64,000 nt of DNA from an uncultured Candidatus Actinomarina sp. (lineage in GTDB: Bacteria > Actinomycetota > Acidimicrobiia > Actinomarinales > Actinomarinaceae): contig CACJJR010000003.1 of assembly GCA_902593795.1 (NCBI GenBank), positions 89,837 through 153,836 of the forward strand. Reading direction: 5' to 3'. Below the pieces are notes generated by a model that did no database searches, was not told the origin of the DNA, and saw only the letters and a list, made by a program, of their open reading frames with translations. Both the position numbers and the translations under genes were made by a program. Position 1 is the stretch's first letter. Each line of letters starts with the position of its first letter. Below, one piece after another: positions 10,319 to 32,774 of this stretch.

Positions 10319-11303
10319 AAATATTTATCTAAGCAGCAGTGAAGAATTAATTAAATATATTAATGAAGATTTACCAAATGAGAGCTTAATTATTCTCGAT
10401 TCTGCTCTTGAGCAATTTAAATTACATAGCAATTTTAATGCAAGTCATGTTTACTTAAAGGTTTCTGAAGAAACAAAAAATTTAGAAACAGTTGAAAAAA
10501 TTTGGGAAATAATGTTTTCATCAAATTTAAATAGATCAGACGCAATAGTAATTATTGGAGGTGGGGTTATGCTTGACCTCTGCTCTTTTGCTGCAAGCAC
10601 ATATAAAAGGGGTATTGCCTTTACATTAGTTCCGTCTACTTTATTAGCTATGGTTGATGCATCTCATGGAGGTAAAAATGGTTTTAATAATAATTATGGA
10701 AAAAACCAAATTGGCACTTTTAATTTACCCAAGGGTGTTGTAGTTTGTTTTGAACTTCTCAATACTTTGAAAGATAAAGATTATAAAGATGGCTTAATTG
10801 AGCTTGTAAAACATGGACTAATTGGTAGTAAAGAAATATTTGATAAATTGGTTTTTACAGAAAATTTCAAAATAGATACTGAGATAATCAAAAAAGGAAT
10901 ACAAATTAAAGAAGATATTGTAGAAGACGATTATTTAGAAACTGGAAAAAGAAAATATTTAAATTTTGGGCATACAGTAGGCCACTTAATTGAGCAAGAT
11001 TCAAAGTTCACTTTATCACACGGTGAAGCTGTAGCTATAGGAATGATTTATGAACTTGAACTATCGAAGAAACATTTTGGTTTGCCACAAGAAGTAATTG
11101 ATTTGTATGTTTCATATCTTGAAAAACTTGATTACAAAAAATCATATGAATTTGTAAACGACATCGACTACTTATTAGGAATTTTAAAAGATGATAAAAA
11201 AAGTAAATCTGACTCTGTAGATATTGTTTTACTATCAGATATATCACAGCCTAATTTAATTAGTATAAGCTTTGATGAATTGATTGAGGTGATTCAAAAT
11301 TAA
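10311..11303 (+). CDS. aroB: 3-dehydroquinate synthase
   Basis: 330 aa with IGGGVMLDLCSFAAS, LNFGHTVGHLIE and HGEAVAIGM metal-site motifs. Confidence 0.92.
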   Translation: MPKNIYLSSSEELIKYINEDLPNESLIILDSALEQFKLHSNFNASHVYLKVSEETKNLETVEKIWEIMFSSNLNRSDAIVIIGGGVMLDLCSFAASTYKRGIAFTLVPSTLLAMVDASHGGKNGFNNNYGKNQIGTFNLPKGVVVCFELLNTLKDKDYKDGLIELVKHGLIGSKEIFDKLVFTENFKIDTEIIKKGIQIKEDIVEDDYLETGKRKYLNFGHTVGHLIEQDSKFTLSHGEAVAIGMIYELELSKKHFGLPQEVIDLYVSYLEKLDYKKSYEFVNDIDYLLGILKDDKKSKSDSVDIVLLSDISQPNLISISFDELIEVIQN

Positions 11304-11736
11304 AGATATATACATTATCAACGGTCCAAATCTTAATTTTTTAGGCATAAGAGAAATTACCCAATATGGATCAACAAGCTATGATGAGTTAAAAAATTTA
11401 ATAAATTCTGAAGCAAAGAAGTTAAAAATCAAAACTGTTTTTTTTCAATCAAATATTGAAGGTGAAATTGTTGATTATATACAAAACCTAATTAATAATG
11501 AAAATTCATCGGTTGTGATCAATCCTGGAGCATACACACATACAAGTATTGCAATAAGGGACGCTTTGCAGACTTATTCACAAAACAACGATATAGTTGA
11601 AGTTCATATTTCAGATATAAATCAAAGAGAACAATTTAGAAAAACAAATTTAATTTCTGATATTAGTACTAAATCAATTATTGGAAAAGGTGTGCAGGGA
11701 TACATTGAAGCACTGGAGTACATTAATGAACAATAA
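11299..11736 (+). CDS. aroQ: 3-dehydroquinate dehydratase, type II (apparent ATT start)
   Basis: The frame is open from 11293. It encodes (M)KDIYIINGPNLNFLGIREITQYG...QSNIEGEIVDYI...VINPGAYTHTSIAIRDAL...VEVHISDINQREQFR, a full-length type II DHQase of about 145 aa. There is no ATG/GTG/TTG before the conserved N-terminus. A GAGGTGA SD (11286-11292) lies 6 nt before ATT 11299. The track ORF at 11515 is only the C-terminal half. Confidence 0.85.
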   Translation: MKDIYIINGPNLNFLGIREITQYGSTSYDELKNLINSEAKKLKIKTVFFQSNIEGEIVDYIQNLINNENSSVVINPGAYTHTSIAIRDALQTYSQNNDIVEVHISDINQREQFRKTNLISDISTKSIIGKGVQGYIEALEYINEQ

Positions 11737-13652: not shown

Positions 13653-14666
13653 GTGTATAATTTAAACATGGGAAGTTTATTAGCTTTAATTCTTGAAAAA
13701 TTTACAATTGAGATTATTCCAAAACTCCCGTTGTTTATTAGAACAAAACTATACGTAAACATATTAAAATTAAGAAAAGTTCGTGACAGGATTAGGCTAG
13801 ATGCAACACGAAAGAATCCAACTTTCCAAGATCGGCTAGAGTACGCAATAGATTCAAGGGCAAACTTAAATGCTTCGGGTGAAAAAATATTATCTTTTAA
13901 TGAAAATGTGCAAATTGAAGAAATTCAAAATGGTCCTGTAAAAATTTTTAAATTTACACCTAAAAATGCTGATGTTAGTAAATATGGTATTTATTTTCAT
14001 GGTGGAGGCTATTTTGCAGGAAGTATTAAGTCACATAAAAACTTTGTATCGATAATTTCTCAGGACTCTAATTTAGTAATTTATTTTTTTGAATATCGTC
14101 TTAGTCCAGAACATATTTTTCCTGCTGCGCATGAAGATGCGAAACTAGCTGTAGAATATATTGACAGTCTTCACAAAGGTGAGCAGTCAATCTGGATGGG
14201 AGAGTCAGCTGGGGGAGGCTTAGCCACGGGTCTTGTAGTTGATAAAGAATTTAACATTAGACCTGATAACCTGATACTTCTTTCCCCTTGGCTAGATTTA
14301 TCTGATGGATTTCAAGACAAAAAGTATCTTAAGAACAGTGACGTAACAATTATTATTGAAGGAATGTATGAAGTTGGAGAGTTTTATGCGGGTGATTATG
14401 GTCCCACTAATCCGATACTATCACCTGTTTATGCTGATATAGACGACTTTCCAGATACTTTAATTCAAGTTTGTACAGATGAATTACTTTATAATGATGC
14501 GATTGAATTCGTAAAAAAATTACGAGACAAAAATACAAATGTAGTACTTCAAACATGGGATAAGCTCTGGCACGCATGGCACTTTTTTCCCATTAAAGAA
14601 TCATTTGAAGCAGTTGATAAAATATCTGACTATATTAAATCTTCAGAGTTTCAATCCTCAAGATGA
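13653..14666 (+). CDS. alpha/beta-hydrolase fold-3 esterase/lipase (HSL family)
   Basis: 337 aa with the oxyanion HGGGY motif and the GESAGG nucleophile elbow. The start is either GTG 13653 or ATG 13668. Confidence 0.8.
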   Translation: MYNLNMGSLLALILEKFTIEIIPKLPLFIRTKLYVNILKLRKVRDRIRLDATRKNPTFQDRLEYAIDSRANLNASGEKILSFNENVQIEEIQNGPVKIFKFTPKNADVSKYGIYFHGGGYFAGSIKSHKNFVSIISQDSNLVIYFFEYRLSPEHIFPAAHEDAKLAVEYIDSLHKGEQSIWMGESAGGGLATGLVVDKEFNIRPDNLILLSPWLDLSDGFQDKKYLKNSDVTIIIEGMYEVGEFYAGDYGPTNPILSPVYADIDDFPDTLIQVCTDELLYNDAIEFVKKLRDKNTNVVLQTWDKLWHAWHFFPIKESFEAVDKISDYIKSSEFQSSR

Positions 14667-15397
14667 TGTAGAGCAAATCCGAAAGGCAATTCAAGCCTAT
14701 TTTCAGACATTATTTTTTCGTTCTTTAGTATTTTATAAGTATTATCGTTTGCAGTAATTTTTCCATTATTTAAAATTACACTTCTACTGCATATTTCTAG
14801 TGCCATGGGTAGATCATGTGTAACAAGAATTATTGATACATCAAGGTTTTTTAGTATATCTATTAGTTCTCTTCTGGAAGCAGGATCTAAATTTGAACTT
14901 GGCTCATCTAAAACTAACAATTCAGGCTCTGAAGCCAGAACACTTGCTATTGCTACTTTCCTTTTTTGACCAAAGCTCAAATGATGTGGCGGTTTATCAA
15001 TAAAGTCAAGCATTTTTACTTGTTTAAGGGCCTCAATTGAGTTTTCCTCAACTTGTTTTTCACTAAATCCAAAATTTTTTGGGCCGAACATTACATCCTC
15101 TAATACAGTTGGCATAAAAAGTTGATCATCAGGATCTTGAAAAACTAAACCCACAGATTTTCTTATTTTTGAAATATTTTCCTCAGAATATGAAATATCA
15201 TTTAATTTAATTTCACCCTTTAATTCACCATGAATACCATTTAGGTGAAGAATTAAAGTAGTCTTACCAGCCCCATTAGGACCCAAAACTGCAAGCCTTT
15301 CACCTTTTGACAAATTTAAATTTACATTTTCTAGTGCTTTATAGCCATCTGGATATTCAAAGTTTAGATTATTTACACTAAGGTACCCCCCATTCAT
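14651..15397 (-). CDS. cbiO: ECF/cobalt-type ABC transporter ATP-binding protein (CbiO/EcfA-like)
   Basis: 248 aa with Walker A GPNGAGKTT, signature LSFGQKRKV and Walker B LLVLDEPSS. It overlaps cbiQ by 4 nt. Confidence 0.85.
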   Translation of the reverse strand: MNGGYLSVNNLNFEYPDGYKALENVNLNLSKGERLAVLGPNGAGKTTLILHLNGIHGELKGEIKLNDISYSEENISKIRKSVGLVFQDPDDQLFMPTVLEDVMFGPKNFGFSEKQVEENSIEALKQVKMLDFIDKPPHHLSFGQKRKVAIASVLASEPELLVLDEPSSNLDPASRRELIDILKNLDVSIILVTHDLPMALEICSRSVILNNGKITANDNTYKILKNEKIMSENRLELPFGFALHHLED

Positions 15398-16158
15398 AAG
15401 GCGAACCTATCTATGATACAAATTGAAACTGAAACTAAAGCAATTAGTATAATTGCATTTGAAGAATTGAACTGTCGCGACTTAAGCTCTAGTGTTCCTT
15501 TAAATCCTCTAGATATCATGGAATTGTATACTCTTTCTCCTCTTTCATATCCTCTTATTAATAATGCACCAGAAGCAAATGCTAGTGGTTTTAGTGTCCG
15601 TATACCTTTTTCAGCATAACCTCGTGAACGCATAGAGACTTTTACTCTTTTCACTTCGTCAATAAAAACATCAATGTATCTGATCGCAAAAGAGAATATA
15701 GAAATTATTAAAGGAGAAATCTTTAGTTTCTGTAAGCCATATATTATTTCGACATTAGAAGTTGTAGCAGTAAGAATAATTGCCAATGTGACGCAAAGAG
15801 TTATCTTTACCAAAATTGAAGTCATTTCATTGAAACCTGTCTTATAAATATTTAAATTAAAAAAACTTGATAATACTTCTCCGTCTCCTTTACTGACAAA
15901 AGGCAAGAATAAAGCGAATAATATAAAAGGAATATCAATAGAAAGTCTTTTTAAGTAAGTCTTAAATTGTAGTTTTGAAATAATTAACAAACCCAAGACT
16001 ATAAGAGCCTGTAAATAGATTGTGGATTTGTTTTCTAAACTTAAAAATGCAATAGATAAAATGATGCCAAAAAAGGAAAGTATCTTTATCTCTGGCTTTA
16101 TTTTTACTAAATATGAGTCACTATGCGTTTCTAAATGGTGTGAGTGAGAAGTTTCCAT
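15394..16158 (-). CDS. cbiQ: ECF transporter transmembrane (T) component, CbiQ family
   Basis: 254-aa multi-TM protein with the conserved cytoplasmic Arg-rich loop (VSMRSRGY). The N-terminus is His-rich (METSHSHHLETHSD). Confidence 0.75.
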   Translation of the reverse strand: METSHSHHLETHSDSYLVKIKPEIKILSFFGIILSIAFLSLENKSTIYLQALIVLGLLIISKLQFKTYLKRLSIDIPFILFALFLPFVSKGDGEVLSSFFNLNIYKTGFNEMTSILVKITLCVTLAIILTATTSNVEIIYGLQKLKISPLIISIFSFAIRYIDVFIDEVKRVKVSMRSRGYAEKGIRTLKPLAFASGALLIRGYERGERVYNSMISRGFKGTLELKSRQFNSSNAIILIALVSVSICIIDRFAL

Positions 16159-16173
16159 ATTTGTATATCTTAA

Positions 16174-16188
16174 TGCAAATAATTTGCA
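16174..16188. promoter_or_regulatory. perfect 7-1-7 palindrome TGCAAAT-A-ATTTGCA, candidate Fur-family operator
   Basis: It lies in the 42-nt spacer between the Fur-family gene stop (16201) and the cbiQ start (16158). The geometry matches actinobacterial Zur/Nur-type boxes. Confidence 0.4.
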
Positions 16189-16200
16189 ATAAAAGATATA

Positions 16201-16614
16201 TTAGCATTTTTTGCATAAACCGGTGTACACGAAGTGGTTCGTTATTTCTTTAAAATCCGTCTTGTTTTTAATAAGTTTGTTTACTTTTTTAGAAGTTGCT
16301 TGGTCAAGGTCAGCGATATCATCACATGATTCACAAACTATGTGAATATTTGAATAGGCTTCTTTTAAAAAATACAACCCTGAACCATGAGCTTGATGGG
16401 AATGTTCAATTAAATTTATGTTTTCTAAAAGCTCAAGCGTTCTATATACAGTCGCTAAGTCAATGCTCTTATCTTTTTTTAATGCAAGTTTATGAAGTTC
16501 TTCTACTGTAAAATGTTCATGCCCAGAGGTTTCAAGAATTTTGCAAACCACTTCTCTGGCATTAGTAATTCTGTTGCCTCTTTTCCGCAATTCATTAACG
16601 AAATCCATAATCAA
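16201..16614 (-). CDS. Fur-family metalloregulator (Zur/Nur/PerR subtype undetermined)
   Basis: 137 aa with an N-terminal winged helix, a His cluster (EHSHQAHG) and two CxxC pairs (CESC, CKKC). Confidence 0.85.
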   Translation of the reverse strand: MIMDFVNELRKRGNRITNAREVVCKILETSGHEHFTVEELHKLALKKDKSIDLATVYRTLELLENINLIEHSHQAHGSGLYFLKEAYSNIHIVCESCDDIADLDQATSKKVNKLIKNKTDFKEITNHFVYTGLCKKC

Positions 16615-16642
16615 GTATATTATATGATTGAAAGGCTGAATT

Positions 16643-17116
16643 ATGAAAAAAAAGTTTCTTAGAATACTAAATCTCTACAGCCTTCTTTATCTTCCAATTG
16701 GCTGGGTTGTTGGTTTAGCAATCATATTTATTGCTTATGAGCCCATAACAGTTCTTTATTTTCTAAGTGTTTTTGTATTGGGATTATTTGGATTTCTGAT
16801 TCTTTACACATCTAATAGAAAGATGGTTGATGACTCATATATTATTTCAGATTATCCATTTTCAATTATTGAATATTATTCTGATTACTGACTAGGTTGT
16901 ACAGCTTCAAAATTCATAGTTGATGAATTTAAAAAGAACAATCCAGATATTTACTTTGTTTCAATTAACGCAAGTAAGCAAAAAGATCATGAGTTTATTA
17001 ATAAATATAAATTAAACAATACTCCAACTTATGTTTTGATAAACCATACTGGAGAAAAGATTGGAAGAAGAGTAGGAACATTCTATCCTAAATATTTTGA
17101 GGAAAAAATAAGTTAG
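16643..17116 (+). CDS. membrane-anchored thioredoxin-fold protein with in-frame TGA (16889-16891) at the first Cys position of CxxC; candidate selenoprotein (alternative: fresh pseudogene)
   Basis: The track ORF 16643-16891 (two TM helices, then ...FSIIEYYSDY) is followed in the same frame by 74 stop-free codons: LGCTASKFIVDEFKKNNPDIYFVSINASKQKDHEFINKYKLNNTPTYVLINHTGEKIGRRVGTFYPKYFEEKIS. Together these are collinear with thioredoxin. Y-[TGA]-L-G-C-T aligns with W-C-G-P-C-K, and a cis-Pro motif (TPT) is present. A hairpin follows at 16910-16930. Confidence 0.55.
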
Positions 17117-32462: not shown

Positions 32463-32492
32463 ACACCTATGTAGTTTATTTAAGGAGCAAGG

Positions 32493-32774
32493 GTGGAGTT
32501 AAAAATAATCGACGAACTATTAGGCGGTATGCCTTCCTGGACTGAAGAAGCTAATTGTAAAGGTGCAGACGCCGATTTATTTTTCCCTGAAAGAGGGGCT
32601 TCTACTAGAAAAGCAAAAGCAATTTGCAGAGCATGTACAGTTCAAGACGAATGCCTTGAGTACGCAGTAGAACAGTCTGAAAAATTTGGCATCTGGGGTG
32701 GGCTATCAGAAAGAGAAAGAAGACGCATCAAAAGACAACGAGCTGCTGAGTTTGATGTCAGGGATGTTGGTTAA
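32493..32774 (+). CDS. whiB: WhiB-family Fe-S transcriptional regulator
   Basis: 93 aa with four Cys in the WhiB pattern (C-x22-C-x2-C-x5-C: ANCKG, AICRACTVQDEC), a GIWGG turn and a basic tail RERRRIKRQR. The start is GTG 32493 or ATG 32529. Confidence 0.92.
   Translation: MELKIIDELLGGMPSWTEEANCKGADADLFFPERGASTRKAKAICRACTVQDECLEYAVEQSEKFGIWGGLSERERRRIKRQRAAEFDVRDVG

Follow-up and report, generated by a model that had tools for sequence, protein, structure and literature searches.

A thioredoxin-like gene with an in-frame TGA codon

The DNA analyzed here is a stretch of 64,000 nucleotides from contig CACJJR010000003.1 of an uncultured Candidatus Actinomarina sp., and this whole stretch is referred to as the window. 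At 16643-17116 of its forward strand lies a 157-codon gene for a membrane-anchored thioredoxin (Trx)-like protein, which starts with ATG at 16643, carries an in-frame TGA at 16889-16891 and ends with TAG at 17114-17116. The TGA falls on the first position of a CxxC-type redox motif and is followed by a hairpin that resembles a selenocysteine insertion sequence (SECIS), and comparison with related genes argues that it very probably specifies selenocysteine (Sec). An initial annotation, made from the sequence of the window by itself, had described the gene as a candidate selenoprotein. Its coordinates and joined translation were confirmed. The product around the TGA reads ...IIEYYSDY-(TGA)-LGCTASKFIVDEF...NNTPTYVLINHTGEKIGRRVG, and the whole joined translation consists of MKKKFLRILNLYSLLYLPIGWVVGLAIIFIAYEPITVLYFLSVFVLGLFGFLILYTSNRKMVDDSYIISDYPFSIIEYYSDY, the TGA codon and LGCTASKFIVDEFKKNNPDIYFVSINASKQKDHEFINKYKLNNTPTYVLINHTGEKIGRRVGTFYPKYFEEKIS.

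The frame stays open for 74 further codons beyond the TGA, up to the TAG at 17114-17116. That such a continuation is unusual was borne out by a survey of the window, in which 59 stop-to-stop frames ended in TGA and had a length of 60 codons or more; only 2 of these ran on for at least 74 codons (median, 7), the second one being antisense to groEL. The initial annotation had also seen no start codon near 16892; the next in-frame ATG, GTG or TTG beyond the TGA is indeed a TTG at codon 132, and the open reading frame (ORF) list contains no ORF of at least 40 residues in the frame of the gene 3' of 16892. Since the TAG overlaps the stop codon of the convergent csaA gene, there is no spare non-coding DNA at the locus. 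The features of the locus are listed in Table 1, in which dN/dS denotes the ratio of nonsynonymous to synonymous substitution rates.

Table 1. Features of the Trx-like gene and its upstream region (window coordinates)
Feature	Position	Strand	Description	Evidence
Codons 1-82	16643-16888	+	Basic N-terminus with LNxYS, two predicted membrane helices (residues 13-31 and 34-57), linker, Trx-fold strand beta-1 (residues 73-79)	Translation, AlphaFold, dN/dS ~0.14
TGA, probable Sec codon (U83)	16889-16891	+	First residue of the U-L-G-C redox motif	TGA in orthologues, Cys homologues, alignment to WCGPC
Codons 84-157 and TAG	16892-17116	+	alpha-1, beta-2, alpha-2, cis-Pro loop, beta-3, beta-4, alpha-3	
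Resolving Cys86	16898-16900	+	TGT codon	
cis-Pro P128	17024-17026	+	CCA codon	
SECIS-like hairpin	16911-16929	+	Within the coding sequence; arms 16911-16917 and 16923-16929, loop AGUUG 16918-16922	
Probable promoter and ribosome-binding site	16595-16635	+	-35-like TTAACG 16595-16600; -10-like TATTAT 16618-16623; Shine-Dalgarno-like GAAAGG 16630-16635	
Fur-family regulator gene	16201-16614	-	Divergent; first gene of a fur-cbiQ-cbiO string	Pfam FUR, E 9e-24

The TGA and the frame beyond it in orthologous loci

We assembled 59 orthologous loci; besides that of the window, 12 lie on metagenome contigs and 46 on genome contigs. These genome loci came from a family-alignment scan of one genome per GTDB species, and nearly all of them belonged to Candidatus Actinomarina/Actinomarinales, represented by single-cell genomes and metagenome-assembled genomes (MAGs); the best was 97% identical to the window gene. 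All 59 loci contained TGA at the column of codon 83, at amino acid identities down to ~51%, and a Cys or Trp codon was found there in none. The TGA was also kept in a more divergent relative (46% identity) that has the same Fur/tRNA-binding gene context, and it occurred at the same column in seven more distant Sec-form loci.

The part of the gene beyond the TGA was equally well preserved as a reading frame. Each of the 53 unique full-length orthologue sequences was 157 codons long, with no indel and no second stop, so that the frameshifts or further stops for which the initial annotation had advised looking were absent. A 156-codon gene encodes P0042, a homologue from the wider family described below. 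The median pairwise dN/dS was 0.14 for codons 2-82 and 0.20 for codons 84-157, and it was 0.205 for codons 97-157, where the codons of the hairpin are left out. The intact frame in 53 sequences, together with a dN/dS of ~0.2 indicative of purifying selection, implies that the part after the UGA is translated. At the protein level, N10, Y12 and S13 were conserved in the wider family, and the second Cys and the cis-Pro, which the initial annotation had pointed out, were invariant there (C86 and P128).

One of the orthologous loci lies on a 4.7-kb contig (L049, JAKVCV010000044.1) of a MAG labelled Saprospiraceae. Its copy of the gene encodes a protein identical to those of Actinomarina single-cell genomes (L047, L048 and L054), and the contig is probably mis-binned.

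Public annotation of the gene

A protein search returned 40 homologues, mostly of 157 residues, which are stored with Trp at the TGA column. We examined the source contigs of these proteins and found TGA in the DNA, and the stored proteins were not reproduced by translation with genetic code 11. The apparent Trp is therefore an artefact of gene calling, in which a code-4 model was picked on short AT-rich contigs. This form of storage was seen at loci L001-L012, L059-L064 and L070-L072, and it makes the selenoprotein resemble a TGG-to-TGA pseudogene. On longer contigs the gene was stored in two other forms, either as a truncation of 82-89 residues named "hypothetical protein" or "c-di-AMP phosphodiesterase-like protein", or as a C-terminal scrap of 37-50 residues named "thioredoxin-related protein". 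Thus, every public copy of the gene that was examined is mis-annotated, being truncated, split into scraps or given a Trp.

Sec and Cys forms in the wider family

To define the wider family, we queried 1.84 billion representative proteins with a profile hidden Markov model built from the Trx domain. Apart from the orthologues themselves, the matches included proteins of 150-180 residues that share a layout of an LNxYS N-terminus, two hydrophobic helices and a Trx domain. Nine of them have a CxxC motif at the column of the TGA (P0085, P0112, P0121, P0088, P0117, P0133, P0075, P0113 and P0087), with motifs such as CAGC, CLGC and, in a protein from a Chloroflexota MAG, CVGC. Seven further proteins are stored as W-x-x-C; the DNA of five was checked, and all five have TGA (P0072, P0079, P0067, P0099 and P0042, the last being a closer relative).

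P0087 has TGT at the column, and its gene neighborhood is that of the window gene, with the order DHquinase_II, PDT, Abhydrolase_3, CbiO, CbiQ, CbiM, Fur, the Trx-like gene, tRNA_bind, FMN_red and acyltransferase. The common neighborhood and the TGT codon together identify P0087 as an orthologous Cys form from a related lineage of 32% G+C. Among the Cys forms, the gene of the Chloroflexota MAG protein P0085 has a gene for a TPMT/TehB-type methyltransferase directly downstream, and the two overlap by 4 nt (L067, 2225-3318). Methyltransferases of this family have been connected with the methylation of selenium and tellurium; the arrangement was seen at one locus and is possibly a coincidence.

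A conserved hairpin downstream of the UGA

The initial annotation had placed a hairpin within the coding sequence shortly after the UGA. This hairpin, AAATTCAT-AGTTG-ATGAATTT, was confirmed as a perfect 8-bp helix at 16910-16930, in which an eighth A-U pair specific to this window extends a 7-bp stem. The stem begins 22 nt past the UGA and the element spans 22-40 nt, with a UGA-to-loop spacing of 26 nt. The consensus for bacterial SECIS (bSECIS) elements allows loops of 3-9 nt and stems of 4-16 bp, places the loop 16-37 nt from the UGA, and asks for a G within the first two loop positions followed by G or U and for a minimum free energy no higher than -7.5 kcal/mol (PMC13188914). The geometry of the hairpin agrees with this consensus in the loop (AGUUG, 5 nt, with G second and then U), in the stem (7-8 bp) and in the spacing. 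A hairpin of bSECIS geometry with 7 or more Watson-Crick pairs occurs after only 20 of the 2756 TGA triplets in the window (0.7%).

Among the orthologues, the hairpin was predicted in all 40 unique segments. Codons 77-88 encode invariant amino acids and yet use two to four synonymous codons each in the 53 sequences; codons 89-95 (TCA AAA TTC ATA GTT GAT GAA) are near-frozen at the nucleotide level, and variation returns at codon 96. In these 53 sequences, TCA was found in 52, AAA in 51, TTC in 52, ATA and GTT in all 53, and GAA in 50. The invariance of GTT is seen despite the four-fold degeneracy of Val codons, and the third-position T of GAT/AAT is likewise present in 53 of 53. The rare changes in the stem are structure-neutral or compensatory, with A-U replaced by G-U, U-A by U-G, or U-A by C-G (L051 and L070).

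Alignment-based tests gave the same picture. RNAalifold, applied to 36 unique segments, produced a 7-bp consensus stem with double compensatory changes at five of the seven pairs. When the 8-bp helix was tested, 91.7% of the cells were paired, versus 12-60% when the partner strand was displaced by 1-3 columns. In 500 column shuffles, neither the observed pairing nor the observed covariation was reached, and all shuffles were beaten on four of the five measures. In the distant Sec forms, a hairpin occurs at the identical offset with an (A/C)GUUG loop and a different stem sequence (CCU/AGG in place of UUC/GAA). Three outgroup Cys forms have 2, 5 and 6 standard pairs out of 8, with interior mismatches, and in the syntenic Cys orthologue the hairpin is absent (4 of 8 pairs, non-contiguous). 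Judged from these sequence comparisons, the hairpin is under selection as an RNA structure, and its presence goes with that of the UGA. A role as an intrinsic terminator was rejected, as there is no terminator-like site and no U-run after the hairpin.

The GU of the apical loop in SECIS elements is contacted by SelB. Like the E. coli fdhF-type SECIS, the Actinomarina element is an intragenic stem-loop at a fixed short distance past the UGA with a small apical loop of G followed by U. It differs from the fdhF type in being much shorter and AU-rich, with 7 bp, a folding energy of about -4 kcal/mol, no bulged U and an invariant AGUUG/A loop, and a divergent SelB has been reported for the lineage.

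Protein fold and membrane topology

For AlphaFold modeling we used P0005, a protein that shares 83% identity with the window protein, has a nearly identical Trx domain and is stored with W at position 83; 33 homologues served as the alignment. The model had a predicted local distance difference test (pLDDT) score of 87.7 and a predicted template modeling (pTM) score of 0.73. An N-terminal helix (residues 2-11) precedes the two membrane helices, and beta-1 of the Trx domain is followed by alpha-1 (84-99), beta-2 (103-109), alpha-2 (117-121), beta-3 (129-134), beta-4 (139-144) and alpha-3 (149-155). Residue 83 lies in the loop before alpha-1, and Pro128 lies just before beta-3. The model thus has the beta-alpha-beta-alpha-beta-beta-alpha order of a Trx fold; its redox motif sits where helix 1 begins, and its cis-Pro loop precedes beta-3. 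Foldseek against the PDB returned thioredoxins as the top matches (target template modeling score 0.7-0.77, root-mean-square deviation ~2 Å).

In a profile search of PDB sequences, ...FYSDY-U-LG-C... was aligned to ...FYADW-C-GP-C... of Drosophila thioredoxin-T. This alignment to solved thioredoxins places the UGA on the nucleophilic first Cys of WCGPC, as the initial annotation had proposed. None of the NCBIfam models for Trx-like selenoproteins (GOS_C NF045500, SaoT, HUIPC-motif, VPGUxxT and others) matched any of 29 family members at E up to 0.1, except for weak partial matches to TsoB and PDO_seleno_TRX far below the cut-offs.

The distribution of charges around the two membrane helices, which correspond to 16643-16830 of the window, differed within the family, the inter-helix loop being neutral or acidic in the Actinomarina clade and basic in most outgroup homologues. 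Members of the Actinomarina clade have four to six Lys/Arg residues at the N-terminus and none or one in the inter-helix loop, and most outgroup members have none or one positive charge at the N-terminus and two to four in the loop. By the positive-inside rule, this bias suggests that the Trx domain is cytoplasmic in the Actinomarina clade and that most outgroup homologues have the opposite membrane orientation.

Promoter and gene neighborhood

The region at 16595-16635 is a probable promoter and ribosome-binding site of the Trx-like gene. A consensus scan scored 9 of 12 matches for its promoter elements, and the -10-like hexamer lies within a conserved GTATATTATA box. A GTATA(T/A)T box is conserved 5' of the start codon at the orthologous loci and fits a -10 element; the Shine-Dalgarno-like motif ends 7 nt ahead of the ATG.

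The Fur-family gene is transcribed divergently, with its start codon ~30 bp from that of the selenoprotein gene, and it is conserved as a neighbor at the orthologous loci and at the locus of the Cys orthologue. NCBIfam models did not resolve whether this neighbor is of the Fur, PerR or Zur class. One might guess from this neighbor that the gene acts in metal or peroxide stress, and a regulatory link between the two would be a further guess. In the window (14651-16614, minus strand), fur is followed directly by cbiQ and cbiO, which encode the T and A components of an energy-coupling factor (ECF) transporter, with no cbiM; at the syntenic locus of the Cys-form relative (L068, 3019-5957), cbiM lies between fur and cbiQ.

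Genetic code of the window

Under code 11, the window contains 62 non-overlapping ORFs of at least 100 residues, which cover 92% of it. They end with TAA in 42 cases, TGA in 13 and TAG in 7, and several of the TGA stops lie in ATGA overlaps with the next gene. The three TGA-ended genes that the initial annotation had cited (rimI, sucD and livF) encode complete GNAT, SucD-like and ABC-ATPase domains according to Pfam. TGA is therefore a normal stop codon in the window, as had been claimed. In the rest of the window, TGA-split frames belong to known genes, as antisense or low-complexity frames, and none is a further selenoprotein candidate; a scan of all collected loci for a TGA followed by a hairpin with an xGUUR loop found this gene family only.

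Two other genes of the window are worth recording. A WhiB-family gene for a small transcription factor (32484-32774, plus strand; Pfam Whib, E 5e-25) represents a hallmark of Actinobacteria and agrees with the assignment of the window, whose G+C content is ~33%, to Actinomarina, an ultra-small lineage of marine Actinobacteria. The type II dehydroquinase gene aroQ (11286-11736, plus strand) matches positions 2-137 of the 138 of the Pfam DHquinase_II profile, has no ATG, GTG or TTG start, and has in-frame TGAs just upstream. An ATT at 11299-11301, 6 nt past a strong Shine-Dalgarno sequence (GAGGTGA, 11286-11292), is its probable start codon.

Interpretation of the UGA codon

The conservation of the TGA at all 59 loci, the Cys homologues at the same column, and the conserved, covarying hairpin support the proposal of a selenoprotein. 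The recoding of this UGA is genuine, with Sec insertion by far the best reading of the comparative data, and we consider it highly probable that codon 83 specifies Sec in a membrane-anchored thioredoxin-like enzyme. The stem-loop 22-40 nt past the UGA in the mRNA would act as a bacterial SECIS, recruiting SelB and Sec-tRNA(Sec) to a ribosome paused at the UGA. The product would consist of two N-terminal membrane helices and a minimal Trx fold with the motif U83-L-G-C86 and the cis-Pro P128. It is most likely a membrane-tethered selenol/thiol-disulfide oxidoreductase, in which U83, as the selenolate, would react with a disulfide of the substrate (or with a sulfenic or otherwise oxidized group) and C86 would then resolve the mixed selenenylsulfide. 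We infer this chemistry, and with it a substrate and an electron donor, as we do the Sec insertion itself.

Published work bears on whether the lineage can make and insert Sec. According to an unreviewed preprint, each of 84 complete Actinomarina genomes has selC, selA and selD as well as a selB that is divergent, and a selenouridine synthase is lacking (bioRxiv 10.64898/2026.04.03.716425). The same preprint describes Actinomarina as a rhodopsin photoheterotroph and gives ~5 selenoproteins per genome as predicted by deep-Sep, naming a 78-residue family, SelD and the K07090 family and mentioning no thioredoxin-like one.

Several observations weigh against the Sec reading. The hairpin by itself is only weakly stable (-3.7 to -4.7 kcal/mol, z -1.8 to -2.5 for the single sequence), in line with the AT-rich and weak stem that the initial annotation had described, and the 57-nt stretch after the UGA folds at -7.8 kcal/mol with z -0.67, no more stably than shuffled sequences. 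Orthologue folds ranged from -4.8 to -12.9 kcal/mol, and many miss the -7.5 kcal/mol criterion. Because the single-sequence stem is weak, support for the hairpin comes from the comparison across genomes and not from folding energy. The Val-Asp encoded at the loop is conserved in the Cys forms too, so that the protein may explain part of the loop conservation. Rfam searches detected no SECIS or other meaningful family, either in the window at gathering thresholds or in 16860-16990 at E up to 10, an empty result that is expected, since Rfam is reported to cover the SECIS elements of bacteria poorly (bioRxiv 10.64898/2026.04.03.716425).

Other points concern the protein and the decoding machinery. 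The Pfam models scored below their cut-offs (PF00085, 22.1 vs 23.5; PF13098, 23.5 vs 27), as did NCBIfam TIGR01068 (27.4 vs 96.8), and all 29 family members were sub-threshold for Trx models. As thioredoxin models matched below threshold only, the family is best regarded as a distinct, unnamed subfamily of the Trx superfamily and not as TrxA. No selA, selB, selC, selD or tRNA-Sec gene was detected in the window or in ~0.9 Mb of flanking DNA, for which ARAGORN was run on the window and 40 flanking loci and SelD and SelB signature motifs were scanned over the window and the flanking DNA. That the lineage is equipped to read UGA as Sec thus follows from the preprint, which is unreviewed and concerns related genomes. 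Finally, the full-length product and the presence of selenium in it are predictions from DNA sequence.

The weakness of the SECIS, which could be taken to make the UGA a selenium-dependent switch, invites a more speculative extension. Actinomarina may have pared down Sec decoding in its streamlined 1.1-Mb genome to a 19-nt AU-rich SECIS, with an invariant AGUUR loop and a stability well short of the customary threshold, that is read by a divergent SelB, with the UGA serving as such a switch and with the membrane topology inverted relative to Chloroflexota-like and other relatives. We regard this combination as doubtful.

A related proposal, which would add to Sec insertion and not replace it, is that the gene has two outputs. 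Termination at the UGA would yield a functional 82-residue two-helix peptide, and Sec insertion would yield the full enzyme when selenium is present. Sec insertion in bacteria always competes with release factor 2 (RF2), and the SECIS here is unusually weak; the N-terminal part, which has its own LNxYS motif, is at least as constrained as the remainder (dN/dS of 0.14 versus 0.20). The Cys forms, however, make the full-length protein only, and the N-terminal part is conserved in them as an anchor. No support for a role of the truncated peptide emerged from this analysis, and we judge the proposal unlikely.

The comparative data demonstrate recoding and a functional hairpin, and they leave the identity of the inserted residue to other considerations. 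The UGA might be read through without selenium by a near-cognate tRNA, such as that for Trp, or by a UGA-reading tRNA-Cys variant delivered by SelB, with the hairpin merely stimulating the event. For certain bacteria, Cys has been suggested to be inserted at UGA in a SelB-dependent manner. Trp at this column, however, would kill the redox site, and the occurrence of Cys in the non-TGA homologues at the nucleophilic position of CxxC is the classic signature of Sec/Cys exchange. The hairpin also has bSECIS geometry, and the lineage reportedly keeps selA and selD, which are needed solely for making Sec. Readthrough without selenium is therefore very improbable.

A recent nonsense mutation or a sequencing error that turned TGT/TGC (or TGG) into TGA and left the downstream half unexpressed could not have been excluded from a single sequence and seemed to be favored by the W in database homologues, but that W is an artefact, the homologous DNA has TGA throughout, and the frame past the TGA is unbroken and evolves under purifying selection, so that the very recent pseudogene offered as the alternative in the initial annotation can be dismissed as having next to no probability. 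Reassignment of UGA to Trp or Gly throughout the organism (code 4 or code 25) would suit a small AT-rich genome on whose short contigs gene callers took code-4 models, but it is just as remote given the code-11 coverage of the window, the TGA-ended ORFs with complete Pfam domains and ATGA overlaps, and the lack of any other credible TGA-split gene in the window.

Relation to known proteins and significance

The gene is an unnamed or new member of the commonest class of bacterial selenoproteins, the UxxC Trx folds. In the Global Ocean Sampling (GOS) survey, Trx-like 1 comprised 321 Sec sequences and Trx-like 3 comprised 212, the latter enriched in marine samples, and the UxxC Trx-fold class dominates marine metagenome selenoproteomes (PMC2398784). 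With these UxxC Trx-like selenoproteins (PF00085/COG0526; GOS "Trx-like 1-3"), the Actinomarina protein shares the Trx fold, Sec in place of the first Cys of CxxC, Cys homologues at the column, an intragenic SECIS after the UGA and abundance in marine surface metagenomes. It differs from them in its two-helix anchor with LNxYS, its minimal Trx domain of ~88 residues and its sub-cut-off scores. GOS "Trx-like 3", which has weak similarity to cd02950/TxlA, is a candidate equivalent when compared by description only.

Two groups of membrane-anchored Trx-like proteins also resemble the family. The TxlA/Slr1796-type proteins of cyanobacteria (NF038096, "thylakoid membrane photosystem I accumulation factor") are likewise ~157 residues long, membrane-anchored and Trx-like, whereas the Actinomarina protein comes from a host without a photosynthetic apparatus and has Sec rather than Cys. 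Seven of the 29 wider-family members match NF038096 weakly (best E 1.9e-5, far below the cut-off), and the window protein gave no match. TlpA, ResA and CcmG(DsbE) share the membrane-tethered Trx fold and the CxxC-type motif, and weak profile matches were found to ResA in 13 of the 29 members and to DsbE in 7, with no family cut-off reached. These proteins have a single N-terminal anchor and a larger, outward-facing domain with an insert, whereas the Actinomarina clade has two helices and a charge bias that would put the Trx domain in the cytoplasm.

The use of Sec by Actinomarina, from the preprint, and the UxxC Trx-fold selenoproteins were already known. Particular to this gene are the two-helix LNxYS anchor, the presence of the Sec form at every recovered Actinomarina/Actinomarinales locus, the very small AU-rich SECIS with its invariant loop, and the systematic mis-annotation in public databases. 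Given such annotation, surveys of the Actinomarina selenoproteome and pangenomes will miscount the gene. A Sec/Cys pair in synteny, combined with a tiny covarying SECIS, also provides a good test case for models of bacterial SECIS elements, and the usual free-energy threshold would overlook many of these orthologues.

In the sunlit ocean, Actinomarina ranks among the most abundant bacteria. Since the Sec form was found at 46 of 46 genome loci, the gene is probably part of the reason why this minimal genome retains the Sec apparatus. The gene is therefore a candidate link between the marine supply of selenium and membrane redox or oxidative-stress protection in these bacteria.

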